Below, piece by piece: positions 8,625 to 33,325 of a stretch of DNA of 34,154 nucleotides (positions are counted from its first letter, which is position 1; every line of letters starts with the position of its first letter). The position numbers and the translations under genes are program-made. Source of the stretch: an uncultured Oscillospiraceae bacterium (GTDB taxonomy: Bacteria > Bacillota > Clostridia > Peptostreptococcales > Anaerovoracaceae). The DNA is taken from contig CAZWCK010000001.1 of assembly GCA_964632625.1 (NCBI GenBank), positions 1 through 34,154 on the forward strand. The letters run 5' to 3'. The notes below the pieces were generated by a model, which was not told where the DNA came from, made no database searches, and worked only from the letters and a program-made list of their open reading frames with translations.

Positions 8625-10577
8625 GTGTGTGAATTTGAGGAAGTGGCTGTAGGGGATGCAGTATGGGTTCCGTTCACATTGGGTAATAAGAGAAGAAGAG
8701 CATATGTATTTCAAGTTATTGATGAACCGGAAACAAAGATAAATAGGCTGAAATTTGTTGAAGAAATTGAGAAAGAGATATCCTTAAATCCAGAAATCAT
8801 CAATACATGCTTGTGGATGAAAAAAAGGTACCTTTGCAAATATATTGATGTCGTAAAGTGCTTTACTCCTGCAGGAAATAAGCTTAAGAAGGGTGTTAGT
8901 AAGGCAAAATTCGATGATTCTTCTGGAGAAAATTTGGGCTCCATGCAGTTGACTCTTGAGCAAAGAGAAGCTGTCAATAAGATTTTTCCATACGTTGAAA
9001 GAAAAGAGCATAGAATATTTCTTATTCACGGAGTAACAGGGAGCGGGAAAACCGAAGTATATATGCAAGTCATAGGCAGGTGTTTGGAAAATAACGAGAC
9101 TGCAATTATGATGGTTCCCGAAATATCCCTTACCAAGCAGGTAATAGAAAGATTTATAGGTAGATTTGGGGCAGAAAATATTGCAGTGCTTCACAGCAAG
9201 CTTACAGAAAGAGAGAGATATGATGAATGGATTAGAATCAGGCGTGGTGAAGTTAAAATTGTAATAGGTGCTAGATCTGCGGTGTTTGCACCTTTGAGCA
9301 ATATTGGAGCAATAATCATGGATGAAGAACATGAGGCGACATATAAATCAGACAAAACACCCAAATATGATACCGTTGAAGTCGCTCTAAAAAGAGCAAA
9401 AACACACGGGAGCATATTGGTTTTGGGAAGTGCGACACCATCTGTAGTTTCAAACAGCAGAGCTGTTAGCGGTATTTATGATAAAGTCAAGCTTACAGAA
9501 AGATATAATCAGGTGCCTTTGCCTCAGGTTCAGATTGTAGACATGAGAAAGGAATTGAGAGATGGAAATAAATCTATCTTTAGTGATGCTCTTTATAGAG
9601 AATTAAATTTGTGCTTACAAGACAAAAAACAAGCTATTTTATTTCTTAACAGGAGAGGATATTCAACATTTATTTCCTGCAGAGAGTGTGGATTTGCAAT
9701 GAAATGTCCAAATTGTTCAATTTCGCTTACCTATCATAAAGAGGAAAATGCTGCAATTTGTCATTACTGTGGACATACAACCAAGATTCCGACAAGCTGC
9801 CCTGAATGCGGGAGCAAATATTTCAGGCACTTTGGAATAGGCACGGAAAAAATTGAAGAATCAATGGAAGAACTTTTCCCAGATGTGAAAACCCTGAGAT
9901 TGGATTTAGATACTATAAAGAAAAAAGGCAGTTTAGATAAAATATTGACTGATTTTTCAAAGAGAAAGGCCGATGTTTTAATAGGAACACAGATTGTAGC
10001 CAAAGGGCTTGACTTTCGTAATGTGGGATTGGTTGGGGTAATCATGGCAGATTCCACATTGAATCTTCCGGATTTCAGATCAGCAGAAAGAACCTTTCAA
10101 TTGACAACTCAGGCAGCAGGAAGAGCAGGCAGGGGTGATGAGAAGGGGAAAGTAATTGTTCAGACATATTCTCCCGAACATTATGCCATAGTTCAAGCAG
10201 CAAAACAGAACTATGAGGACTTTTATTTGAGGGAGATTCAATTGAGAAAACTATTGAACTACCCACCTTATTGTGATTTGTTTGAGATAATTTTTGCAGG
10301 ACAGGAAGAAAAAAAAGTAATAGATGCTGCAAAACATTGTGAAAAGCGGCTCAAAGAAGCTTTGGAAGAGGAAGATAATAAAAATATTTTCACACCGAAA
10401 CCGGCACCAATTTATAAATTGGGTGAGAATTTCAGATATCATATACTCATAAAATGTCCAAAGGGCAGGAGAAACAAATATGCCCTGGAAATCGATAAAA
10501 TTAGAAAAGAAGTATCGATGAACAAAAAAAACAAATATAATATGTACATAGATGTAAATCCATATAGTTTTATTTAG
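8625..10577 (+). CDS. priA: Primosomal protein N' (PriA helicase); the 5' end is uncertain, see finding on upstream in-frame TAG codons
   Basis: Walker A 'GVTGSGKTEVY', 'MDEEHE', and Cys-rich zinc region 'CRECGFAMKCPNCSISLTYHKEENAAICHYCGH...CPECGS'. The first in-frame start after TAG 8601-8603 is GTG 8625. Confidence 0.85.
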   Translation: MCEFEEVAVGDAVWVPFTLGNKRRRAYVFQVIDEPETKINRLKFVEEIEKEISLNPEIINTCLWMKKRYLCKYIDVVKCFTPAGNKLKKGVSKAKFDDSSGENLGSMQLTLEQREAVNKIFPYVERKEHRIFLIHGVTGSGKTEVYMQVIGRCLENNETAIMMVPEISLTKQVIERFIGRFGAENIAVLHSKLTERERYDEWIRIRRGEVKIVIGARSAVFAPLSNIGAIIMDEEHEATYKSDKTPKYDTVEVALKRAKTHGSILVLGSATPSVVSNSRAVSGIYDKVKLTERYNQVPLPQVQIVDMRKELRDGNKSIFSDALYRELNLCLQDKKQAILFLNRRGYSTFISCRECGFAMKCPNCSISLTYHKEENAAICHYCGHTTKIPTSCPECGSKYFRHFGIGTEKIEESMEELFPDVKTLRLDLDTIKKKGSLDKILTDFSKRKADVLIGTQIVAKGLDFRNVGLVGVIMADSTLNLPDFRSAERTFQLTTQAAGRAGRGDEKGKVIVQTYSPEHYAIVQAAKQNYEDFYLREIQLRKLLNYPPYCDLFEIIFAGQEEKKVIDAAKHCEKRLKEALEEEDNKNIFTPKPAPIYKLGENFRYHILIKCPKGRRNKYALEIDKIRKEVSMNKKNKYNMYIDVNPYSFI

Positions 10578-10591
10578 GAGGAAAATTTAAA

Positions 10592-11062
10592 ATGGCACTG
10601 AGAAATATAGTGGTAGAAGGCGATGAAATATTGAGAAAACGCAGCAGAGAGGTTGCAGAAGTTGATGATAGAACAAGGATGATTTTGGACGATATGCTTG
10701 AGACAATGCATAATGGAGAAGGCGTAGGAATAGCAGGACCACAGGTGGGCATATTAAGAAGGATGTTCATTGTAGAGGCAGAAGAAGGAAATCCAATTGT
10801 ATTTATAAATCCAAAAATATTAGAAAAATCAGGAAGCCAATCTGGAGAAGAAGGCTGTTTATCTGTCCCAGGATATTATGGTACAGTTGAAAGACCTGAA
10901 AAGTTAAAGGTCTCAGCTTTGGACAGAGGAGGAAATCCATTTGAGTTAGAGGCAGAAGGGTTTTTAGCAGTGGTAATATCTCACGAATATGATCATTTAG
11001 AGGGAATCTTATTTATAGATAAAGCTGTAGATATTCACGAAACAGTATGTGATGAGGAATAG
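10592..11062 (+). CDS. def: Peptide deformylase
   Basis: Motifs 'GVGIAGPQVG', 'EGCLSVPG' and 'HEYDHLEG'. Confidence 0.97.
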   Translation: MALRNIVVEGDEILRKRSREVAEVDDRTRMILDDMLETMHNGEGVGIAGPQVGILRRMFIVEAEEGNPIVFINPKILEKSGSQSGEEGCLSVPGYYGTVERPEKLKVSALDRGGNPFELEAEGFLAVVISHEYDHLEGILFIDKAVDIHETVCDEE

Positions 11063-11065
11063 AAT

Positions 11066-12031
11066 ATGAAAATAGTATATATGGGAACTCCTAATTTCGC
11101 TGTTTGTGCATTGCAAAAATTAGTTGAAGATGGACATGAAATAGGTTATGTTGTAACACAGATAGACAAAGCCAAGGATAGGGGCAAAAAAATACAGGAA
11201 ACTCCGGTTAAGCAAAAAGCTAAGGAGCTTGGTATTGAAGTGTTGCAACCGGAAAGCATAAGGAAAAATATTGAGTTTATTGACAAGATAAAGGCGTATG
11301 TTCCTGATTTGATTGTGGTTGCAGCCTATGGACAGATACTCCCAAAGGAAATCCTTGATATTCCGGTAAAGGGGTGCATTAACATACACGCTTCCTTACT
11401 GCCAAGACACAGGGGAGCGGCACCTATTCAAAGAGCTATTCTCGAGGGAGACGAAAATACAGGCGTTACTCTTATGTACATGGAGGAAGGCTTAGATACC
11501 GGAGACATGATTGCAAAGTCAGAGATCCCAATTGACAGAAAAACAGGCGGAAGCCTTGACGATGAGCTTGCCATATTAGGCGCAGAATTATTGGCAAGAG
11601 AATTGCAAAATATCCAAACAGGAAATATTACAAGAGAAAAGCAGGATGATACTAAATCAACTTATGCTCCAATGATATTCAAGAAAGACGGAGAAATAAA
11701 TTTTACAAAATCAGCACAGGAAATAGAACGGCTTATCAGGGCATTTGATCCATGGCCAGGAACATACACTTATTACAAGGGTGAGACCATGAAGATTTGG
11801 CAAGCAGATGTTATAGATGAAGCTGTAGATGCAGATGATTTTGAAAAAAGACAGGAAAAAAACAATTATGTACCGGGAACTATTGCAGAGGTTAGCAATG
11901 CCGGAATCAGGATTATTACAGGACAGGGACAACTTCTTGTCAAGGAAATTCAGATGCCTGGTAAAAAAAGGATAAAAATAAATGAATTTTTAAGAGGTAA
12001 CAACATTGAAAAGTTTACTGTTTTGGGGTAA
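11066..12031 (+). CDS. fmt: Methionyl-tRNA formyltransferase
   Basis: 'HASLLPRHRGAAPIQRAIL' and its position directly after def. Confidence 0.97.
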   Translation: MKIVYMGTPNFAVCALQKLVEDGHEIGYVVTQIDKAKDRGKKIQETPVKQKAKELGIEVLQPESIRKNIEFIDKIKAYVPDLIVVAAYGQILPKEILDIPVKGCINIHASLLPRHRGAAPIQRAILEGDENTGVTLMYMEEGLDTGDMIAKSEIPIDRKTGGSLDDELAILGAELLARELQNIQTGNITREKQDDTKSTYAPMIFKKDGEINFTKSAQEIERLIRAFDPWPGTYTYYKGETMKIWQADVIDEAVDADDFEKRQEKNNYVPGTIAEVSNAGIRIITGQGQLLVKEIQMPGKKRIKINEFLRGNNIEKFTVLG

Positions 12032-12063: not shown

Positions 12064-12768
12064 ATGTATTTTGGATTATTTGATCCAACGGTAGTATTAT
12101 TAATACCAGCAATAATATTTGCTTTCTATGCTCAGGCAAAAGTGAATTCTGCATATAACAAATATTCAGGGGTAAGAAACAAAAAAGGAATAAACGGAGC
12201 TCAGGCGGCGAGACAGATTCTTGATGCAAATAAATTGGGAAATGTTAGAATTGAAGTGACACAGGGAAAACTTTCAGATCATTATGATCCAAGAACAAAG
12301 ATTTTGAGGCTTTCACCAAAGGTTTACAACGAGCCCTCTATTGCTTCTGTTAGTATTGCCGCTCATGAGTGCGGTCATGCGGTGCAGCATGCCAATGCTT
12401 ATGCTCCTTTGATTGTGAGAAATAGTATTGTTCCAGTTGTGAACATTGTTTCCACTATTTCTTGGCCACTTTTGATTTTCGGACTTATAATTGGTCAGGC
12501 AGGAAATGCAACTCAAGGAAATTTTATTTTTAATTTAGGAATTATTGCCTTTTTGGGAGTTGTATTATTTCATTTGATAACTTTACCTGTAGAACTTAAT
12601 GCCAGCAGTAGAGCCATTAAGCAAATACAGGAGTTAAATATTATTTATGCGGAGGAAGCTTCGGCAGCGAAGAAGGTTCTATCTGCGGCGGCGATGACCT
12701 ATGTTGCAGCACTTGCAATGGCGGTTGCAAACTTATTGCGATTATTAGCGATTAGGGGGAGAAATTAA
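12064..12768 (+). CDS. Membrane zinc metallopeptidase (YugP/Zn_peptidase_2 family)
   Basis: 'HECGHAVQH' HExxH motif flanked by transmembrane segments. Confidence 0.8.
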   Translation: MYFGLFDPTVVLLIPAIIFAFYAQAKVNSAYNKYSGVRNKKGINGAQAARQILDANKLGNVRIEVTQGKLSDHYDPRTKILRLSPKVYNEPSIASVSIAAHECGHAVQHANAYAPLIVRNSIVPVVNIVSTISWPLLIFGLIIGQAGNATQGNFIFNLGIIAFLGVVLFHLITLPVELNASSRAIKQIQELNIIYAEEASAAKKVLSAAAMTYVAALAMAVANLLRLLAIRGRN

Positions 12769-14067
12769 ATGGATGTAAACAGAAAAACGGCGTATTTTAC
12801 TTTATTAGACGTGGAGACAAAAAGTTCATACTCAAACATTTCCTTAAACCACCATATTATTTGTAGCAAGCCCAATTCACCAGCATTTGTAAGAGAATTA
12901 GTATATGGTGTTTTAGAAAATAAATTATTGTTGGATTATATAATTGACTATTTTGTCCCAACCGGCTCATGCAAAATAAAGGCCAGTGACTTAACAGTTT
13001 TGAGAATGGGAATTTATCAGCTTATGAGCATGGACTCAGTTCCAGAATATGCAGCTGTAAATGAGAGCGTAATTCTTGCTAAGCGTTTTTGCCGTGGAAG
13101 GGAAGGGTTCATAAATGGAGTGCTTCGTTCTTTCACAAAGGATAGATATAAAATTCAGTTACCTGAGAGGTCAGAGGACGAAGTTAAATATTTGTCTATA
13201 AAATATTCATATGCACCATGGATTATTGAACTGTGGCTTGAACAATATGATGTGAATTTTGTAGAAGACTTGTTGAAAGCAGGGAATGAAACTCCGGATA
13301 CAGTAATTAGACTTAACTGGCTGAAAATCATGAAAGAAGACCTTGTTAAGCGCCTTGTAGAAAAAGGTTTTAAGGTTGAAAAAGGTCAATTGTGTGAGAA
13401 TGCATTGCATATCAAAGGCTCAGGGCTTCTATCAGGGAAGCTTTATAAGCAGGGAATGTTTTCTATTCAGGATGAAAGTTCTATGTTGGTTTCTGTTATG
13501 TTAGATCCAAAGAAGGGTGATACTGTAATGGATGTTTGTGCTGCACCAGGAGGAAAAACTCTTGCAATAGCAGAAAGAATGAATAATACAGGAAGAATAA
13601 TTGCATCTGACATATATAAGAGAAAGTTAAACATTATTGATAATGAGGCAAAAAGACTTGGCATTTCAATTGTTGAAACAAGAACTTGGGATGCTACAAA
13701 GGTGGATTCCACAATGTTGGAAAAGGCAGACAGGGTTTTGGTAGATGCTCCGTGCAGTGGACTTGGAGTTATTCGAAGAAAGCCTGAGATTAAATACAAA
13801 AAGAGAAGTAGGGATATGGATACTCTCCCAAGGAAACAGTATGAAATATTGTCAGCTTCATCAAAATATGTAAAACCAGGTGGTGTTTTGGTATATAGTA
13901 CTTGTACTATCAATACTTACGAAAATCAAAAAGTAATTGCAGAGTTCTTGAGAAAAAATTCGTTCTTCAAGAAAGAAGAGGAACTGCAATTAATGCCGCA
14001 TGTTAATGGTACAGATGGATTCTTTATTTGTAAAATGATAAAGGAAGATAGCTTTTTGAAGAAATAG
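12769..14067 (+). CDS. rsmB: 16S rRNA (cytosine967-C5)-methyltransferase RsmB
   Basis: NusB-like N-terminus, SAM motif 'DVCAAPGGKT', and catalytic 'VDAPCSGLGVIRRKPE' and 'YSTCT'. Confidence 0.93.
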   Translation: MDVNRKTAYFTLLDVETKSSYSNISLNHHIICSKPNSPAFVRELVYGVLENKLLLDYIIDYFVPTGSCKIKASDLTVLRMGIYQLMSMDSVPEYAAVNESVILAKRFCRGREGFINGVLRSFTKDRYKIQLPERSEDEVKYLSIKYSYAPWIIELWLEQYDVNFVEDLLKAGNETPDTVIRLNWLKIMKEDLVKRLVEKGFKVEKGQLCENALHIKGSGLLSGKLYKQGMFSIQDESSMLVSVMLDPKKGDTVMDVCAAPGGKTLAIAERMNNTGRIIASDIYKRKLNIIDNEAKRLGISIVETRTWDATKVDSTMLEKADRVLVDAPCSGLGVIRRKPEIKYKKRSRDMDTLPRKQYEILSASSKYVKPGGVLVYSTCTINTYENQKVIAEFLRKNSFFKKEEELQLMPHVNGTDGFFICKMIKEDSFLKK

Positions 14068-14080
14068 TGACGGTAATAGA

Positions 14081-14809
14081 ATGATAAAAGTCGGATTTAA
14101 AAGTGATAAGGGATTAAAGCGGAGCAATAACGAAGATGCTTGTTTCGTTATGCCTGAAGAAAGAGTTTTTATTGTTGCTGATGGCGTAGGTGGAAATAAT
14201 GCCGGAGAGGTGGCATCAAGAACAGCTGTTAGCAAAGTTGCTGAGTATGTAAAAAATCATGATATGACAAATGTTGTTGACGAAGAAGATGTAAGAAATT
14301 ATTTTTTAGATTGTTTGACAGAAGTAAATCAAATTATTTATGACATGGATAGCGACAGAGAAAACTTGCAAGGAAGAGCAACTACATTGGTAATAGCTTA
14401 TATCCAAGACAATATAGCTTATTTTGTTAATATAGGGGATAGCAGAGCTTATGTACTTAGAAATGAAAAATTAAGTCAAATAACTGAAGATCATACATAT
14501 GTAAACACGTTAATTAAGCAAGGAACAATTACAAAGGAAGAAGCGCGAATTCATCCAAGGAGAAATATGATAACAAGAGCTTTGGGTGGAGAATCTGAGA
14601 TTGAGCCGGATTTTTACAAGGTTGAAATCAAAGAAAATGATATTGTCCTTTTATGTTCAGATGGCTTATATGGAGAACTTGAGGATGAAAAGATATGTAA
14701 GATTTTAGTAAGTAATGAAAATATGTCGGACGCTTGTTGGAAGCTTATTACAAAAGCTAATCGTTCAGGCGGAAGAGATAATATTACAGTTATTTGTGTA
14801 AAGGTATAA
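14081..14809 (+). CDS. stp: PP2C-family Ser/Thr protein phosphatase (Stp/PrpC)
   Basis: 'ADGVGG', 'CSDGLYG' and 'GGRDNITVI'. It is paired with the downstream kinase. Confidence 0.93.
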   Translation: MIKVGFKSDKGLKRSNNEDACFVMPEERVFIVADGVGGNNAGEVASRTAVSKVAEYVKNHDMTNVVDEEDVRNYFLDCLTEVNQIIYDMDSDRENLQGRATTLVIAYIQDNIAYFVNIGDSRAYVLRNEKLSQITEDHTYVNTLIKQGTITKEEARIHPRRNMITRALGGESEIEPDFYKVEIKENDIVLLCSDGLYGELEDEKICKILVSNENMSDACWKLITKANRSGGRDNITVICVKV

Positions 14810-18492: not shown

Positions 18493-18520
18493 TTGACAAG
18501 AAAAATAACTGTGTTATAAT
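18493..18520 (+). promoter_or_regulatory. Near-consensus sigma-A promoter with extended -10, driving the Tad-like cluster
   Basis: TTGACA (18493-18498), 16-nt spacer, TGtTATAAT (-10 at 18515-18520). Confidence 0.7.
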
Positions 18521-18610: not shown

Positions 18611-19258
18611 ATGAAGTACGGTAAGCCTATATTGGGAATTATCATGATAGCACTAGCTCTAATGCTTATGTTCTTTTGGGAGACTAGTGGAAGACAAATG
18701 GTGACGACAAGTGAAGTTTTGGTGGCAGCAATGGATATTAAAGATGGTGAAATTTTAGAGGAATCAAAGATTAAGGTGGCCAAAACATTAAATGAAAATT
18801 TAATGAAGGATTGCCTATTAAGGGAACAAATGCAAATTGTAATTGGGGAAAAGACCAACTGTGACATTTTTCAAAATCAGCAACTATCAAGAAAATATTT
18901 CCTGAAGAGCAAAAATAAAATAAAAAAAGATTATACGTTATTTACATTGTACTCACACTGGATGAAAAATTTGAGTAGCTCAGTGCGTAAAGGGGATTTA
19001 ATTGATATCTATACGGCAAGAGAAAATATATATTTAGGAAATTTTAGAGTAGCATTTGCGAAGGACAATGCAAATCATGAAGTGGTGGATGAGGGAAAGC
19101 CAAAATCAGCAGAATGCATACTTGATAGAACGGATAGTAATCTAACTCTTGACCACATCGAAATTGAAGCAACTTTGCAGGATTACATGCAAATTTCATC
19201 ATATGGTGCAATAGAAGAGGAAGGGCTTATTATTGTACAAAGAGAGGAAGAAGATTAG
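18611..19258 (+). CDS. cpaB: CpaB/RcpC-like Flp pilus assembly protein (N-terminal TM helix plus SAF domain)
   Basis: The TM segment 'ILGIIMIALALMLMFFW' is followed by the SAF-like 'VLVAAMDIKDGEILEESKIKV' and a later 'VRKGDLIDIY' module. ATG 18611 lies 7 nt after GGGGG. Confidence 0.65.
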   Translation: MKYGKPILGIIMIALALMLMFFWETSGRQMVTTSEVLVAAMDIKDGEILEESKIKVAKTLNENLMKDCLLREQMQIVIGEKTNCDIFQNQQLSRKYFLKSKNKIKKDYTLFTLYSHWMKNLSSSVRKGDLIDIYTARENIYLGNFRVAFAKDNANHEVVDEGKPKSAECILDRTDSNLTLDHIEIEATLQDYMQISSYGAIEEEGLIIVQREEED

Positions 19259-20034
19259 TGGAAAATTTATTTGTGTTTCATGGTACCGATCATAAATGTG
19301 GAACAACTATGGTAGCTCAGTCAGTTGCAGAGATTATTGCAGAGCAAAGAAAAAACATTAATGTATTGATGATTTCATTGAATGGAAGAAAAAGCAACGA
19401 ATATGTGAGCGAGAATATTGCACCTATTGACAATTACAAGTTACAAATTGATAGTGGCATAATCATAGATAAAAATATTATTGCAAAAAACAAACATAAG
19501 GATAATCTTTATATGGTTGGTGGAATAGAAAGAGAACTTGAGCAAAGGTATTACCTGCCAAATACTGCAGCTAAACTATTAGAGGGAATGACACCCCAGT
19601 TTGAAATTATAATTGCAGACACTGGAAGTGAAATAGACAATGGGTTGGCAATAGGTGGACTGTCCTTATCCAAGCTAAATATGATGGTAATGACCCAAAA
19701 CGAAAGTGCTGTTTGTAGGTATGAAAAGAACAGGGAGATATTCAATCAGCTAAAGATAAACTTCGATGCATATTTAATAAATAAATTCTGTGAAGATGAC
19801 CCATATTCCTTGAGTTACTTCTCCCAAAGACTTGACATCCCAGGGGAAAAATTTAAAAAAATTCATATGGCAAACTGTGGAAGGCAGGCAGAAATGGAAT
19901 ATAGGACCTTTGTCAATTACAATGAAGAGCAATATATTCAGGATGTAATAAAAATAAGCAATATTATATTGCAAAGCTGCAATATGGAAGAAATTAAATT
20001 TCAGAGGAAGAAAAAATGGAAAAATTTTATTTAG
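19258..20034 (+). CDS. TadZ/CpaE-like ParA/MinD-fold protein with a degenerate P-loop
   Basis: ParA/MinD-like layout: N-terminal beta-strand plus loop 'VFHGTDHKCGTTMVAQSVAE', then 'IIIADTGSE'. It occupies the TadZ position between cpaB and the ATPase. GTG start overlaps the upstream TAG. Confidence 0.55.
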   Translation: MENLFVFHGTDHKCGTTMVAQSVAEIIAEQRKNINVLMISLNGRKSNEYVSENIAPIDNYKLQIDSGIIIDKNIIAKNKHKDNLYMVGGIERELEQRYYLPNTAAKLLEGMTPQFEIIIADTGSEIDNGLAIGGLSLSKLNMMVMTQNESAVCRYEKNREIFNQLKINFDAYLINKFCEDDPYSLSYFSQRLDIPGEKFKKIHMANCGRQAEMEYRTFVNYNEEQYIQDVIKISNIILQSCNMEEIKFQRKKKWKNFI

Positions 20035-21371
20035 ATAAATATGTGAGAAATGAAAATACTGTTTTTTTATCAAGTAACTACAGCTTTTCAAGTGTATGTC
20101 AGCTCATAAAAAACGAATTTCAAAAAGAATGGAAGTCGCAGGAAGAGAATACGGAGAAACTAGTGGAGTTACAAAAAAAAGCAATAATAGGCTACAGCGT
20201 AGAAGTTAAATATTTCAAGAAAAAAATTGGAGAAATCCTAAGGTTATTCAATATTAATAGGATTGAATTTCCACAATGGTATGAAAATTTGGAGGAAGCC
20301 ATATATCACGAAAACTGGGGGCTTGCTGGAATTGCAGAATGGTTTTCACCACAACATGAGCAAAGCAGCTCAGCAAAAATAATAGGCGATCAAATTTACT
20401 TTCTGGAGAATGGGAGAATGAAGCTTAAACCACAAAAAATCAGTAAAAACAGGAGAGAGCAGCTAACAAGAGCATTTTTACTTATAACACCAGAGGAAAA
20501 AATAAACAAGGATTTTCATGAATTATACATGATAGATGGAACAAGAATAACAATTTTTTCAGGTCACATGGTAAAGGAAAATCAAGATGTAATAATATTT
20601 AGAAGATATGTAATTCCACAATATACATTTGAAGAGCAGGCAAGAAGGGGAACTATTCCTCAAAAGGCAATTCCCTTGTTTGAAAAAATGGTACAGCTTG
20701 GATATAACTGTGCCTTCACAGGAGCTCCCCGTTCCAGTAAAACCACGTTTTTAACCACATGGCAAAGCTATGAGGAAAGAGAATTAGAAGGAGTAATGGT
20801 GGAAACAGATCCTGAAATACCATTACATAAGCTTATGCCCAAAGCTCCTATTATGCAGATTTTAGCGGATAATGATGCACTGAAAAGTATTACAAAGAAC
20901 TTACTTCGCAGCGATGCAGACTATTTTATTATGGCAGAGGCGAGAGACGGGGTTGCACTTGATACAGCATTACGATTGGCAAGCAAAGGAATTCGGAGAA
21001 TGAAAATAACCTTCCACAGCAAGAACCCGCTGAATTTCCCATATGATGTAGCTGATGAAATAGTGCGTACTTATGGAGGCGATGTTTTTTATAATGCAAA
21101 AAGAGCAGCAGGCAGCTTTGATTATATTTTTCATTTCATTCAATTACGAAACAAGTCACAAAAAAGGTTAAGGAGTATTTACGAAATAAGCTATAGTAAT
21201 GAAAACTCCAAAATTGATATGAATTTAATATGCAACTATGACGTTAACAAGGAGGACTGGAGATTCTATGAGTATATAGGAAAGGAAAAAGAAGAACTTG
21301 GCAAGGTAGAAAACCTGCAGGCCTTTAAAGAATTTAAGGATGTTCTTTGTGACCTTGCAAATCCAGTGTAA
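20016..21371 (+). CDS. cpaF: CpaF/TadA-family type II/IV secretion (T2SSE) ATPase
   Basis: Walker A-like 'TGAPRSSKTTFL', Asp box 'VMVETDPEIPL', Walker B 'DYFIMAEARD' and His box 'KITFHSKNP', in the order seen in CpaF/VirB11-type ATPases. Overlaps the upstream gene by 19 nt. Confidence 0.8.
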   Translation: MEKFYLDKYVRNENTVFLSSNYSFSSVCQLIKNEFQKEWKSQEENTEKLVELQKKAIIGYSVEVKYFKKKIGEILRLFNINRIEFPQWYENLEEAIYHENWGLAGIAEWFSPQHEQSSSAKIIGDQIYFLENGRMKLKPQKISKNRREQLTRAFLLITPEEKINKDFHELYMIDGTRITIFSGHMVKENQDVIIFRRYVIPQYTFEEQARRGTIPQKAIPLFEKMVQLGYNCAFTGAPRSSKTTFLTTWQSYEERELEGVMVETDPEIPLHKLMPKAPIMQILADNDALKSITKNLLRSDADYFIMAEARDGVALDTALRLASKGIRRMKITFHSKNPLNFPYDVADEIVRTYGGDVFYNAKRAAGSFDYIFHFIQLRNKSQKRLRSIYEISYSNENSKIDMNLICNYDVNKEDWRFYEYIGKEKEELGKVENLQAFKEFKDVLCDLANPV

Positions 21372-21461: not shown

Positions 21462-22406
21462 ATGAATGAAGGAATAGTTAAAATTGTAATAGTTATAAGC
21501 TATATAATGCTACTTACAGGAATAGTATTGTTGTGGTTTTTTGAGTTTTGGAAGTTGTACATGAATATAAAAATGAGGAATAGGCTTAGAACTAGAAAAA
21601 ACCAGGGAAAAAGTAGGGGACGTTTGTACGAACACGTGAGTATGCTTTTAAAAGTTACTTTGGGTAAAAATGTGAAAATAGTAGGGTTCATTATTTTTAA
21701 TCTGATTATTTTTGTTTCCGTATTTATAGGAGGTCTACGAAATTATTCGCTTGGCTATGCAGTATTTTTGGGAGGATGTGCATCTACATTATCTGTGTTG
21801 ATTTTAGAAATAAGGTTAGGAAATATCAGAAGAAAGGGTAGCTATGAGGGAGAGTTTTTTGTTAGTAAAATGCTTACTAAATATAGGATAAGCGGAGAAA
21901 ACATTTATGAAGCTATTGAAATGGCATTGCAGGACAATGCAAATACAAAAATGTGCAGTAAAATTCTGTATGAGATTTTATTAGATGTTCGAAACACTTC
22001 AAATAAGGAGGATATGAAGAAAATTTTTAATAAATTTTATTTCGGCATAAATACAAATTGGAGTAAAATGATGGCATATAATTTTTATTTGTCAGCAACA
22101 AGGGGAATAGACATAACGGGAGCCATGGAAGATATTTTGTTTCAACTTAGGGAGGTCAGAATGTTAGGTGAAGAAAGAAAGAGAGCTAATGGAGAGGCTA
22201 CAAGAATTGTAGTATTTCTTATTCCGATATTGTATTTATCAACAATATTGATTTCAATTAATTTTGTGGGTATTTCAGTATCTGAATTTATAAAAAATCA
22301 ATTTCTGACAAAGGGTGGATTTCTATTATTTGTAATAAGTATATTTATGTTTTTATTAAATATTATTCTGACTCAAATCGTAAACAATAAAAAGTTTGAT
22401 TATTAG
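21462..22406 (+). CDS. tadB: TadB-like platform protein (T2SSF domain)
   Basis: N-terminal TM helix, a cytoplasmic helical domain and C-terminal TM helices. 'GEERKRANGEATRIVVFLIPILYL' resembles the T2SSF core. Position follows the ATPase. Confidence 0.6.
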   Translation: MNEGIVKIVIVISYIMLLTGIVLLWFFEFWKLYMNIKMRNRLRTRKNQGKSRGRLYEHVSMLLKVTLGKNVKIVGFIIFNLIIFVSVFIGGLRNYSLGYAVFLGGCASTLSVLILEIRLGNIRRKGSYEGEFFVSKMLTKYRISGENIYEAIEMALQDNANTKMCSKILYEILLDVRNTSNKEDMKKIFNKFYFGINTNWSKMMAYNFYLSATRGIDITGAMEDILFQLREVRMLGEERKRANGEATRIVVFLIPILYLSTILISINFVGISVSEFIKNQFLTKGGFLLFVISIFMFLLNIILTQIVNNKKFDY

Positions 22407-22417
22407 GGAGGTGGAGA

Positions 22418-23071
22418 ATGAACGATATATGGATCTATATTGCTATTGCGGCATATGTGATATGGATATATTATGCTGTGGTCTTGATTAGAAACAAGAA
22501 GTACCAAGGGAGGTTTACAAGAAAAAAACTTAAAGAAAGATTTAGTAAAATTTTGCCATTGGCAAGGTTAAAACTGCAAAGAACATTCCTTGTGAGGAGC
22601 AGGTTTGAGGATTTAGTGGATAAAGAGGTCTATGAAGCCTTCTCATTTCTCAGAAATATAATTATTGCTTCTGGAGACCGAATAAATGGAGACTATGTAT
22701 TGGAGCAGCTGTCACATGGTAAGGGAATATTACAGCCAGCATATGTAAGAATGCTTTCATTGTTTAGGGAAAACCAAAAAGAAGCAGGGGTAAAAGAATT
22801 TCTAATGGTTGCAGAAACCTCAATGAGTATTGAACTCGCAGGAATTCTCGCAAGGTGGGATCACATTGGAAACTCTCAATTGAAAGATGTATTAATATCA
22901 TATCAAAAGAGCATTAAGGAAATCTGGGTAACCAGACAAAAGCAAAAGGATGAAATCATAAGTGATTTAATATATTTACCTGTAGTTGTAAATGTATTTG
23001 TCATATTTATAAATTTTATATATGTAGGTTATTTTATAAGTCAGCAGGAAATGTTGAAAATGTTATTGTAA
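22418..23071 (+). CDS. tadC: TadC-like platform protein (T2SSF domain)
   Basis: Same architecture as the preceding gene: N-terminal TM, a helical cytoplasmic domain, and the C-terminal TM segment 'LIYLPVVVNVFVIFINFIYVGYF'. GGAGGTGGAG SD upstream. Confidence 0.6.
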   Translation: MNDIWIYIAIAAYVIWIYYAVVLIRNKKYQGRFTRKKLKERFSKILPLARLKLQRTFLVRSRFEDLVDKEVYEAFSFLRNIIIASGDRINGDYVLEQLSHGKGILQPAYVRMLSLFRENQKEAGVKEFLMVAETSMSIELAGILARWDHIGNSQLKDVLISYQKSIKEIWVTRQKQKDEIISDLIYLPVVVNVFVIFINFIYVGYFISQQEMLKMLL

Positions 23072-23096: not shown

Positions 23097-23243
23097 ATGA
23101 AACAGTTGATTGTATTGATAGCTACAATTATTTTAGGGCTCGCAATTGCAAGTATAGTAATGGGTTTTGGGGGAACGGCAAAGGATATTGGCCAACAAAG
23201 TACAACTAAGATAGAAAGCGTATTTGAAAAGGAATGGATATAA
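23097..23243 (+). CDS. Flp-like mini-pilin candidate 1 (48 aa; not in the supplied ORF track)
   Basis: My translation is MKQLIVLIATIILGLAIASIVMGFGGTAKDIGQQSTTKIESVFEKEWI. A GGAAAGGAA SD precedes it. A hydrophobic helix followed by a short polar tail resembles mature Flp. Position follows tadC. Confidence 0.55.
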   Translation: MKQLIVLIATIILGLAIASIVMGFGGTAKDIGQQSTTKIESVFEKEWI

Positions 23244-23245
23244 GA

Positions 23246-23392
23246 ATGAAACAATTTATTGTAATGTGCAGTTCTATCGCTTTAGGATTGGTTATTTATA
23301 ACATAATTGTCGGAAATGATGATGGAAGTATATTTATGGTGCTGAAATCTTGCTGGTCAAATGAAGTGGCTGCACGTAGTCTGATGCCGTAG
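23246..23392 (+). CDS. Flp-like mini-pilin candidate 2 (48 aa; not in the supplied ORF track)
   Basis: My translation is MKQFIVMCSSIALGLVIYNIIVGNDDGSIFMVLKSCWSNEVAARSLMP. It starts 2 nt after the stop of candidate 1, with 'aaGGAAtGGAtataagaATG' upstream. Confidence 0.45.
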   Translation: MKQFIVMCSSIALGLVIYNIIVGNDDGSIFMVLKSCWSNEVAARSLMP

Positions 23393-23433
23393 GATAATCA
23401 TGGCAAGGGAATATAGTGAATTTGGAGGAGATA

Positions 23434-23838
23434 ATGAAACAGTTTATAGTATTAATTGCAATTTTGCCACTACTGTTGATATTTATGATGCAATTTTCTT
23501 ATGACCAAAAAAATGCAGGACTAATAGCAGAAATTCAGAGCATTGTGTATTTTGCAAAGGAAGAAGCCAAGCAGCAAGGCGGGTTTTCTAAAGAAATGAA
23601 AACAGAACTGAAAGATAACATTGCAGCTATAGCCAATGTCTCTTCAAGTGATGTATTAATTGAATGTGATGAGGAAATCAAGTATCGTTACAGTAATGGA
23701 CAATACCGACAGATATATTACAAAATTTCTGTGCCCATAAGGGAAGTCATGGCAGGGGGAGAATTGTTTGGTATTGATAAAGAAAAAAACAAGTATGTTT
23801 ATGTAATAGATAGTTATACAGCTAGTGAAAAATTATAG
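23434..23838 (+). CDS. TadE-like pseudopilin candidate
   Basis: ATG 23434 follows GGAGGAG. The N-terminus 'MKQFIVLIAILPLLLIFMMQF' resembles the TadE-like hydrophobic segment. The remainder is a soluble domain of about 110 aa. Confidence 0.5.
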   Translation: MKQFIVLIAILPLLLIFMMQFSYDQKNAGLIAEIQSIVYFAKEEAKQQGGFSKEMKTELKDNIAAIANVSSSDVLIECDEEIKYRYSNGQYRQIYYKISVPIREVMAGGELFGIDKEKNKYVYVIDSYTASEKL

Positions 23839-23908
23839 TGTGCAATGTCTACCTAATTAATATTAAGATTGCGCCAATAGTAATAAGAAACGGAGAGAGA
23901 CAAAAGAA

Positions 23909-24352
23909 ATGAAGGTGTTTATTGTATTTTTGGCATTGCTTGTTGTTTGTAGTATGGGACTAATATATCAGGGGGATATGAATTATTATATGCACGAACA
24001 GTTAACTGTAAAGGAAATGGCAGAGGAATGTGCTTGTGGCGCAGCGCTTTTGATAGATCAAAAGGCTTATGGAACCGGAAAACTAGTTTTTTTACAGGAT
24101 GAAGGAAATGACTATGCTAAAAATTTTGTGCAATTTAGGCAGGAGAATCGTAACAATGATTATAATAAGAGAGAACTTTCGCTGAATCTACAGTTTGAAG
24201 ATGATGAGGTGGGATATGGGAAAGAAAATACAGAAAAAAGACCTGCAGTAATTGCTACAGTCATAAGTGAGGGCGAGGATATTTTTAGGCTTCCTTTTCT
24301 GGAAGTTAAGACCGTGAAAAGAATTGCCCGATATGAATTGGATAAATCTTGA
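23909..24352 (+). CDS. TadF/TadG-like pseudopilin candidate
   Basis: N-terminal 'MKVFIVFLALLVVCSMGLIY' is followed by 'MAEECACGAALLID', reminiscent of the TadG-like N-terminal AADAAALAGA helix. It is the last gene of the cluster. Confidence 0.4.
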   Translation: MKVFIVFLALLVVCSMGLIYQGDMNYYMHEQLTVKEMAEECACGAALLIDQKAYGTGKLVFLQDEGNDYAKNFVQFRQENRNNDYNKRELSLNLQFEDDEVGYGKENTEKRPAVIATVISEGEDIFRLPFLEVKTVKRIARYELDKS

Positions 24353-24376
24353 CAATTACCTGCATTGTAATATAAT
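24349..24376 (+). promoter_or_regulatory. Near-consensus sigma-A promoter of thrS
   Basis: TTGACA (24349-24354, overlapping the upstream stop codon), 16-nt spacer, TATAAT (24371-24376). Confidence 0.6.
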
Positions 24377-32032: not shown

Positions 32033-32042
32033 ATTGTATAAT
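32014..32042 (+). promoter_or_regulatory. Candidate sigma-A promoter for rimM-trmD, overlapping the terminator 3' arm
   Basis: TTGAGA (32014-32019), 17-nt spacer, TATAAT (32037-32042). Confidence 0.45.
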
Positions 32043-32093
32043 AGCGTTGTTACTAATAATCGTAAGAGGTTAGTATTAAAAGCGGAGGGAAAA

Positions 32094-32591
32094 ATGGAAA
32101 AAATCAAAATAGGCAGGATTGTAAACGCTGTGGCTCTCAGAGGAGAGGTTAAGGTATATAATTATTCTGATTATAAGGAAAGGTATGAGGAATTATCTGA
32201 AATATATATTGAAGACAATTTGGCAGAGATAGAAAAGGTAAGATATCAAAATCATATGGTTATCTTGAAGATAAAGGGTGTTGATGACCGCAATGCAGCA
32301 GAGAAACTGAAGGAAAAGGATATATATATTACAGAAGACGATTTGAGAGAACTTCCTGAGGATACCTATTATATCAGAGATATTTTGGGGTCGCAGGTTT
32401 TTTTAGAAAATGGTGAAAAGTTAGGTTTACTGACTGATGTAATTCAAAACAGAGGTCAGGATTTGTATGAAATAGAAAAGGAAGACAAAAATAAGGTGTT
32501 GATTCCGGCAGTGTCAGAATTTGTTTTGGAAGTGAATACACAAGAAAAGTTTATAAAGGTTAGAGTAATAGAAGGACTGTTGGAACTATGA
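32094..32591 (+). CDS. rimM: 16S rRNA processing protein RimM
   Basis: 'IGRIVNAVALRGEVKV' N-terminus from ATG 32094, after GGAGGG, and a PRC-barrel-like C-terminus. The stop overlaps the trmD start (ATGA). Confidence 0.93.
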   Translation: MEKIKIGRIVNAVALRGEVKVYNYSDYKERYEELSEIYIEDNLAEIEKVRYQNHMVILKIKGVDDRNAAEKLKEKDIYITEDDLRELPEDTYYIRDILGSQVFLENGEKLGLLTDVIQNRGQDLYEIEKEDKNKVLIPAVSEFVLEVNTQEKFIKVRVIEGLLEL

Positions 32592-33325
32592 AGATAGATA
32601 TTTTGACACTTTTTCCGGAGATGTTTACTGCAATCACAACTAGTAGTATGCTAGGGAAAGCTCAGGAAAAAGGAATATTGGAGATACAGCTAACGGATAT
32701 CCGTGACTATAGTTTGGACAAGCACAAAAAGGCAGATGACTATCCTTTCGGTGGCGGAGCGGGAATGGTAATGATGGCTCAACCGGTTTTTGATGCACTT
32801 AATGCTGTGGGCACTGAAAATAAAAAATTGATTTATATGTCTCCAAGGGGAAAAATTTTGAATCAAGAGAAGATTGAAGAGTTGGCAAACACAGCGGAGC
32901 TAGTTATTTTGTGTGGGCATTATGAAGGGATTGATGAGAGAATAATTGAGAATTTTCAAATGGAAGAAATCTCAATTGGAGATTATATACTAACTGGTGG
33001 TGAGTTACCAGCAATGGTGCTTGTTGATGCGGTGGCAAGATTAGTACCAGAGGTTCTAGGAAATGAAAATTCAATCCGACAGGAATCAATTTACTCAGGA
33101 TTGCTTGAATGCCCCCAGTATACAAAGCCAAGGAACTATTTAGATTTGGAGGTTCCGGAGGTTTTAGTAAGCGGTAATCATAAGTTTATTGAACTTTGGA
33201 GATTTGAGAAATCATTAGAGCTGACAAAGGAGAAGCGGCCTGAGCTTTTTAATGAATTTTTAAAAAAAATAGATTCATTAACAAAAGAACAAAAGAAAAT
33301 ATTCCAAAAAATTATTGAAAAATAA
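32588..33325 (+). CDS. trmD: tRNA (guanine37-N1)-methyltransferase TrmD
   Basis: 'MKIDILTLFPEMF', 'YMSPRGK', 'ILCGHYEGIDERI' and 'SIGDYILTGGELPAMVLVDA'. Confidence 0.97.
   Translation: MKIDILTLFPEMFTAITTSSMLGKAQEKGILEIQLTDIRDYSLDKHKKADDYPFGGGAGMVMMAQPVFDALNAVGTENKKLIYMSPRGKILNQEKIEELANTAELVILCGHYEGIDERIIENFQMEEISIGDYILTGGELPAMVLVDAVARLVPEVLGNENSIRQESIYSGLLECPQYTKPRNYLDLEVPEVLVSGNHKFIELWRFEKSLELTKEKRPELFNEFLKKIDSLTKEQKKIFQKIIEK

Follow-up and report, generated by a model that had tools for sequence, protein, structure and literature searches.

Type IV filaments are described as sharing a universal core made up of a class III signal peptide, an aspartic prepilin peptidase, an ATPase and a platform (PMC10191384). 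A type 4 pilin is defined by a hydrophilic leader that ends invariably in Gly or Ala and that the prepilin peptidase cuts off, and removal of this leader is held to be necessary before the pilin leaves the membrane (PMC10191384). In the class III signal peptide, 20-25 mostly hydrophobic residues make up the first half of the long α1 helix, and Glu (or Asp) at mature position 5 is frequent, though not universal (PMC10191384). Canonical Tad systems follow the same rule, with PilA, CpaJ, CpaK and CpaL all bearing a G/A-x4-F/E site (PMC12607857). The closest published precedent for departures from it comes from Imam et al. (2011), who reported a few clostridial and other Gram-positive tad-like loci with distantly related tad genes and no protein carrying the prepilin motif; the small genes of these “no-Flp” loci (C. 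kluyveri, C. cellulolyticum, C. bolteae and D. hafniense) were not analysed there (PMC3244431). Here we describe four consecutive genes, A, B, C and D, in a 34,154-nucleotide stretch of DNA (hereafter the window; ~33% GC) from an uncultured Oscillospiraceae bacterium of the family Anaerovoracaceae (assembly GCA_964632625.1, contig CAZWCK010000001.1). Judged from gene order, they are the last genes of a nine-gene operon that encodes an SAF/CpaB-like protein, a MinD/TadZ-like protein, an ATPase, two membrane proteins (TM1 and TM2) and A-D. We suggest, with a probability of about 0.5, that A-D are subunits of a highly diverged type IV filament of the Tad/archaeal branch, made without a leader and thus already in the “mature” form.

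All four genes lie on the + strand, and each product opens with M-K-x-[LF]-I-V followed by a hydrophobic helix of ~21 residues. Gene A (23097-23243; 48 aa; N-terminus MKQLIVLIATIIL, that is, MKQLIV...) encodes a Flp-sized, leaderless, pilin-like protein and is the candidate major subunit. Its paralogue, gene B (23246-23392; 48 aa; N-terminus MKQFIVMCSSIAL), follows after only 2 nt (TAA-GA-ATG) and carries the C-terminal motif W-x2-[EQ]-I-x2-R-T-x2-P. Gene C (23434-23838; 134 aa; N-terminus MKQFIVLIAILPL) opens with this N-terminal motif too, and its predicted architecture is lollipop-like, as is that of gene D (23909-24352; 147 aa; N-terminus MKVFIVFLALLVV), whose start reads MK[VI]FIVF. A first-pass annotation of this DNA had picked out these four reading frames, their N-termini and the 2-nt gap between A and B, all of which we recovered at the same positions. 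It had also called the two 48-aa frames unannotated, which proved wrong: public gene callers and RefSeq/PGAP generally list them, and list A-D with the same starts, as “hypothetical protein”. Gene B is uncalled in three of six contigs of the same organism.

For comparison we gathered 80 related genome loci using the ATPase gene as query. The A-B-C-D series stands in the same order, 3' of the two membrane-protein genes, in every locus with enough downstream DNA (62/62), gene D being absent only at two contig ends; there are 62 orthologues of A and 60 of B, the latter nearly always exactly 48 aa long. Met1 and Lys2 are invariant across all four families, Lys occupying position 2 in 244/244 orthologues. 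Gln3 is conserved among the genome loci in 100% of A, 92% of B and 94% of C, and Ile5 and Val6 are kept in ~90-100% of A-C and ~82% of D, where Phe7 is found in 93%. The MKxFIV start, which the first-pass annotation had proposed to follow through homologues, is largely kept across the 62 loci. Further conserved positions are particular to each family: M1, K2, Q3, I5, L13 and G14 are invariant in A; G14 and G23 are invariant in B, with the L13-G14 pair nearly so and W37 and R44 kept in at least 90%; and P12 and Q20 are invariant in C. Entropies at codon positions 1/2/3 of A-D are ~0.9/0.4/1.65, which indicates coding sequence under purifying selection. The family extends well beyond these loci, as a profile of family C retrieved 299 clusters (50% identity) among 1.84 billion representatives, nearly all aligning from residue 1 and with N-terminal variants that include MKQFIV, MKDFIV, MKNLIT, MKELIA, MNNFIA and MTEIIA. 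We conclude that the observation is real, robustly conserved and beyond existing annotation.

The start sites of A-D needed testing, because A, B and C each have an in-frame alternative in the window, a few codons further upstream (GTG 23091, ATG 23234 and GTG 23416, respectively), and mis-set starts could conceal longer frames with a canonical G/xxxxEY leader. Comparison of the orthologues speaks against this on several counts. Read back in frame from the start, the preceding stop is reached after a median of ~5-9 codons and in some genes at once (minimum 0); extensions of 0-5 codons are common, and the 30 nt upstream of the starts are unconserved (entropy 1.6-1.8 bits). The column of the MK start is itself occupied by GTG or TTG initiators in 3/62 A, 10/60 B, 15/62 C and 5/60 D genes. 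Shine-Dalgarno (SD) cores of at least 5 nt precede this start in 42/62 A, 22/60 B, 32/62 C and 15/60 D genes, compared with 4% of random positions, the enrichment being strongest for gene A. The motif G-x4-E-[YF] occurs in 0/244 proteins with 40 upstream codons included, and PGAP and other callers pick the same starts. Since the upstream sequence is unconserved, GTG and TTG fall on the MK column and none of the 244 carries the motif, we conclude from these alignments that the starts are true and that there is no hidden leader. A hidden upstream leader is thus ruled out by the comparative data, and the chance that the starts are mis-set seems to us negligible. The earlier reading of A-D as lacking a leader, a Gly at -1 and a Glu/Tyr at +5/+6 is borne out by the 244 orthologues, and the longer homologous frames with G/xxxxEY that would have spoken for mis-set starts were looked for among them and not found.

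Without a leader, the primary product of each gene resembles a processed pilin, because the M-K-[Q/D/V]-x-I-V start runs straight into the ~21-residue helix. The hydrophobic stretch spans position 4 to ~24, and in each of the four families the first charged residue after position 3 falls, at the median, on residue 23-25. This charge-free stretch, together with the predicted helices of C (2-48) and D (2-47), agrees with the hydrophobic part of a class III signal peptide. The other features of that definition are missing. A-D have no leader ending in Gly or Ala and are therefore not type 4 pilins as defined by the class III signal peptide (PMC10191384), and with no acidic residue at positions 4-12 in any of the 244 proteins they also lack Glu5 or Asp5. 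A and B have neither the G/xxxxEY motif nor the profile match of Flp pilins, there being no Flp_Fap match in A and B of the window or, at E <= 10, among the 62 members of family A; C and D, tested for features of TadE/TadF/TadG (PF07811, PF13400), have no TadV cleavage site.

The way in which A-D resemble one another is nevertheless that of pilins. A and B are homologous over residues 1-26 only (hhalign probability 98%), and C and D can be aligned over residues 1-19 only. By these alignments A-D have an N-terminal segment in common and nothing else, a pattern like that among the pilins of one system. Within gene A pairwise identity is 60% over residues 1-24 and 20% over the remainder, a drop that suggests a major-pilin-like pattern. 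We modelled C and D with AlphaFold 2 (AF2), from alignments assembled from protein-search homologues. Both models are confident (predicted local distance difference test, pLDDT, 93.5 for C and 93.4 for D), and each consists of a long N-terminal helix (2-48 in C, 2-47 in D), a second helix (53-67 and 63-80, respectively) and three strands. The predicted layout, a ~47-residue N-terminal helix with a small sheet, is compatible with the pilin-like “lollipop”.

Features shared with the PilE/PilA subunits of type IVa pili, with ComGC and with the pseudopilins of type II secretion systems are a hydrophobic helix of ~21 residues, extended in the C and D models to a ~47-residue α1 packed on a sheet, and several paralogous subunits alike only in their N-terminal segment. 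A and B also share with type IVa pilins a conserved Gly14, counted from Met1, which is followed in both by a Gly-rich position at 19-23. We take these to fall in register with Gly14 and Pro22, the helix breakers of mature type IVa pilins such as PilE, so that A and B look as if their residue 1 were already that of a processed pilin. Unlike these pilins and pseudopilins, A-D have no leader, no Gly/Ala at -1, no Phe1/N-methylation context and no Glu5, and they show no significant profile or fold match to them.

The same N-termini could be taken for Sec signal peptides that are cut by signal peptidase I to release small secreted products, maybe cargo of the ATPase machine. In many members of family A, positions 16-19 hold A-I-A and then G, much like an AxA site. 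This site, however, is unconserved: position -3 is Phe in 9/62 A members, position -1 would be Tyr/Phe in B, and C and D have no such site. The hydrophobic stretch of ~21 residues has the length of a transmembrane helix, and in the confident models of C and D it lies within one continuous 47-residue helix. We consider secretion of this kind very improbable, and a conserved signal peptidase I site was not found in the family alignments. A lipoprotein signal was rejected as well, there being no lipobox and the Cys8 of some B members being preceded by Leu.

We searched for the enzyme that a conventional pilin would require. The first-pass annotation had found no prepilin peptidase gene in the cluster, and this extends to the wider neighbourhood: no Peptidase_A24 is present among the window reading frames that were scanned or pre-annotated, seven frames of housekeeping context being covered by a motif regular expression only (8625-10577, 10592-11062, 11066-12031, 12769-14067 and 14081-14809 upstream; 32034-32591 and 32588-33325 at the 3' end). 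By a crude test, G-x-[GA]-D-[VIFALM]-K is absent from hydrophobic reading frames in 1.34 Mb of the window and related loci. No A24 signature was found near ~85 clusters with machine genes or beside seven stand-alone A-D modules, which are described below. The only peptidase-like gene seen upstream encodes a putative neutral zinc metallopeptidase (12064-12768; Pfam Zn_peptidase_2, E 4.5e-87), ~6 kb from the operon, and nothing ties it to A-D.

The lack of a linked peptidase also bears on whether A-D are true subunits that undergo a non-canonical maturation, for instance removal of Met-Lys to expose a cyclisable Gln or another N-terminal modification, by an enzyme encoded outside the operon. Lys2 is invariant and Gln3 nearly so in A-C of the genome loci, which suggests a specific recognition of the N-terminus beyond a topogenic charge. 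There is a parallel in the archaeal EppA-type pilins, where Gln at +1 turns into pyroglutamate. Neither residue is kept throughout: position 3 is V/I in D and D, N, E, H or T in distant members of A, B and C, and Lys2 is replaced in some distant members of C (MNNFIA, MTEIIA, MEQYIA). Moreover, no peptidase gene is linked to any cluster, and known prepilin peptidases need Gly or Ala at -1 (PMC10191384). Altogether we regard such a maturation as unlikely.

If A-D are leaderless filament subunits, they would be inserted in the membrane N-in/C-out, with Lys2, the sole cytoplasmic positive charge, fixing their orientation. Their common N-terminal motif may be what the platform (TM1/TM2) and the ATPase recognise, and these two would pull A-D from the membrane into a pilus or a short pseudopilus with no prepilin-peptidase step. 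A, with its variable C-terminal half and the best SD sequences, would be the major subunit; B, with its conserved tail, and the lollipop-like C and D would form a low-abundance priming or tip complex. Only tentatively would we go further and propose a type IV filament machine that works without a leader, a prepilin-peptidase step or Glu5, with M-K-Q-x-I-V as its assembly signal, and that would be the first peptidase-independent type IV filament. The term “pilin-type”, used for A-D in the first-pass annotation, is upheld in part: gene context and the predicted shape of C and D make the label plausible, whereas the sequence and fold comparisons give no significant match and the class III signal-peptide definition excludes it.

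Gene context here means the five machine genes, all on the + strand, that precede A. The operon genes are conserved in 56-62 loci in the same order. A sigma-70-like promoter (18493..18520, + strand; TTGACA, 16 nt spacer, TG-extended TATAAT; 12/12 consensus positions, by consensus match only) lies directly upstream of the first cluster gene and likely drives the operon. No terminator-like site was found between the cluster genes on the + strand, the sole + strand consensus match (24030-24047) falling inside D. The first gene (18611..19258; 215 aa; alternative TTG start 18554) encodes a membrane-anchored, CpaB/RcpC-like protein with a putative SAF domain, found in 56 loci; its matches to Pfam SAF (E 2e-3) and TIGR03177 pilus_cpaB (E 4e-3) are both below cut-off, and its family profile has no match among solved structures. 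The second (19258..20034; 59 loci) encodes a protein in the TadZ position with a predicted MinD/ParA fold; its family profile matches two solved MinD proteins of archaea, 1g3q (E 4.5e-7) and 1ion (E 7.7e-6), by which a MinD fold is supported. Its P-loop, G-x-D-H-K-x-G-T-T-M, is deviant in having no Lys before Thr-Thr, and the deviation is conserved across orthologues. No TadZ- or CpaB-specific model is passed by either of these two proteins.

The third gene (20016..21371; 451 aa; Walker A GAPRSSKTT) encodes a very divergent ATPase that likely belongs to the secretion-ATPase superfamily. Its profile has 12 matches in the PDB, every one of them an ATPase of a type IV filament or of type IV secretion: FlaI (E 2.5e-4), PilU (E 5e-3), archaeal GspE2 (E 8.5e-3), CpaF (E 0.014), VirB11 (E 0.016) and also PilT. 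Against family models the best Pfam match is T2SSE at E 0.11, and TIGR03819 gives E 0.011. The ATPase has more than 800 homologues, of which the best 120 listed are ~57-64% identical and belong to the Anaerovoracaceae (“Family XIII”), including Anaerovorax, Sinanaerobacter, Aminipila, Anoxybacterium, Clostridium aminobutyricum and Bacilliculturomica; several of the sources name the CpaF/VirB11 family. Among orthologues the Walker A reads G-A-[PV]-R-[ST]-[SA]-K-T-T, the replacement of its second Gly by Ala or Ser being conserved. One locus of the same organism as the window (L081:4582-5938) has the ATPase called as two overlapping pieces of 343 and 123 aa instead of 451 aa, the result of either a frameshift or an assembly error.

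The remaining two machine genes, each found in 62 loci, encode membrane proteins that are candidates for the platform. TM1 (21462..22406; 314 aa) is polytopic and a candidate TadB-like subunit; T2SSF is matched by 3/32 of its orthologues (best E 0.15), the window copy having no Pfam match. For TM2 (22418..23071; 217 aa), a candidate TadC-like subunit, T2SSF is the most-matched Pfam family (11/33 orthologues), with a best E of 3e-3 that is below cut-off. Between TM1 and TM2 there is a faint profile similarity (hhalign E 1e-3, probability 21%), and their profiles find nothing relevant among PDB sequences. These comparisons weakly support a distant kinship of the machine with the Tad/archaeal side of the type IV filament superfamily; a Tad system is not demonstrable.

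The likeness to Tad/Flp (type IVc) systems lies in gene content and order, which we compared with the Tad component table (PMC10191384): an SAF/CpaB-like protein, a MinD-like protein, an ATPase and two platform-like proteins are followed by two Flp-sized and two TadE/TadF-sized (130-150 aa) products. D gives a faint PF13400 (TadE/G-like) signal, and the TadV peptidase, too, can be unlinked in Gram-positive Tad loci. A-D lack the leader, the G/A at -1 and the E5/Y6 of Tad substrates, no A24 peptidase is linked to the operon in any locus, and the operon occupies a stable housekeeping locus (rpe...thrS) rather than a mobile island. The “no-Flp” loci differ in that tadV is reported to be kept there, whereas it is not near the present operon or its relatives; the two are likened by description only (PMC3244431).

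A second likeness is to archaeal filaments. The best solved relative of the ATPase is FlaI, with archaeal GspE2 also among its matches, the best MinD matches are archaeal, and 6/62 A members weakly match the hydrophobic N-terminal part of Arch_flagellin (best E 1.8e-3). On the other side, the host is a bacterium (Bacillota), there are two platform-like proteins in place of one FlaJ, and A-D do not have the class III [KR]-G cleavage motif.

Several results weigh against A-D as filament subunits. There is no significant sequence match of A-D to Flp, TadE/F or archaeal pilins; the profiles of A, B, C and D match solved structures only by chance (E at least 0.33), with no solved pilin among them; and Foldseek, run with the C and D models, found nothing in the PDB at E <= 1e-3, its top rows (LptE, meganucleases, COMMD) not being meaningful. 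Family scans, which covered Pfam and NCBIfam for every A orthologue and Pfam for every C and D orthologue, stayed at noise level. The Arch_flagellin matches of family A are sub-threshold and are accompanied by GspH, also in 6/62; family C matches DUF4320 in 4/62 and the TadE Pfam family not at all; PF13400 is the most-matched family of D (4/61), with a best E of 7.5e-3 that is far below cut-off, and finds no match in 10 hand-picked D members. N_methyl gives weak sub-threshold matches. We treat the Arch_flagellin, N_methyl, GspH, PF13400 and DUF4320 matches as leads, not as evidence. The machine components, below every curated family threshold, are themselves weakly assignable, and the housekeeping-like conservation and fixed chromosomal site of the operon are atypical for adhesive pili. 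Lys2 without an acidic residue 5 would leave an unbalanced positive charge in the filament core, and to our knowledge no known type IV filament is built so. Finally, the machine genes are missing beside some A-D modules: no CpaB-like, MinD-like, ATPase or TM1/TM2 gene is present in the ~4-9.6 kb upstream of A-D in three loci (L093, L095 and L096), which means that A-D are not physically linked to the machine everywhere.

These three loci belong to a distant sub-clade in which A-D form a stand-alone operon, often near thrS (L087, L088, L090, L091, L093, L095 and L096; e.g., L096:9671-10878); in L087, L088, L090 and L091 the contig ends ~0.4-2.2 kb upstream of the module. The N-termini of the stand-alone modules read MKDFIV, MKDMII or MKHLII, so that Gln3 is not universal. 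In L096 the module has a serine dehydratase and a PGAM-like gene as neighbours.

The same conservation and the same lack of similarity to known pilins feed the main rival explanation, that A-D are non-polymerising bitopic parts of the machine (an anchor, an alignment component or a stator), comparable with FlaF/FlaG of the archaellum, with PilN/PilO or with GspL/M, and that a canonical class III prepilin and its peptidase are encoded elsewhere. An N-terminal Met-Lys followed by one transmembrane helix is an ordinary signal-anchor signature, and among solved structures the ATPase is best matched by FlaI, its counterpart in the archaellum. FlaF and FlaG are archaellin-like membrane proteins that remain unprocessed, and their soluble domains are β-sandwiches. 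The models of C and D are different in being α+β with a three-stranded sheet, and among the best 50 fold matches listed, none of them significant, there is no PilN/O-, GspM- or FlaF/G-like chain. A plain anchor would also give no reason for the common M-K-Q-x-I-V start that four unrelated families retain in different genera, for the mere 48 aa of two of the proteins or for the hypervariable tail of A. Pilin genes are frequently unlinked from machine genes (PMC3244431), as this rival would need, but no other candidate pilin gene is present in the operon in 62 loci. We regard a role as non-polymerising machine parts as possible, if somewhat unlikely.

The chromosomal setting speaks for a long residence in the family. 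About half of the loci have the operon between rpe and thrS, and the divergence of the ATPase (~59% identity) keeps pace with that of RsgA (60%) and PrkC (59%) next to it. Because its rate is that of its neighbours, we read this as indicating old vertical inheritance, with the slowly evolving operon part of the stable core genome of the Anaerovoracaceae.

A further variant is a termite-gut sub-clade (GC 0.5-0.59; L104-L106, L113, L114, L117-L122, L127 and L128) that has the CpaB-like gene, the ATPase, TM1, TM2, A, B and C, and in which no TadZ-like gene or D is detectable (e.g., L114:5985-16375). Gene C of this sub-clade has a Pro/Asp/Glu-rich C-terminal tail, which fits a C-terminus predicted to be extracellular. 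Directly 3' of the module, three termite-gut loci encode a giant secreted repeat protein of 1110 to >2329 aa, which might be a surface or adhesin partner.

Should A-D form a filament, no type IV filament before it would have had subunits that lack a cleavable leader when made, and a naturally leaderless machine across a whole bacterial family would mean that the rule of leader removal is not absolute. Such a machine would be a natural experiment on the purpose of the leader, on what Glu5 and the N-terminal amine contribute and on how the platform recognises its subunits. Nine “hypothetical” genes would gain a name and a testable model in the Anaerovoracaceae, anaerobes of gut, rumen, termite and sediment. 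The system may also account for the long-noted Gram-positive tad-like loci with “no prepilin” (PMC3244431). Our literature search found no paper on leaderless pilins, on prepilin-peptidase independence or on this operon, and nothing relevant for Anaerovoracaceae with pilus.

At its 3' end the operon meets a second perfect sigma-70-like promoter (24349-24376; TTGACA, 16 nt, TATAAT), which overlaps the end of gene D and lies 78 nt upstream of thrS. Because this promoter stands between the end of D and thrS, thrS seems to be transcribed independently of the operon.

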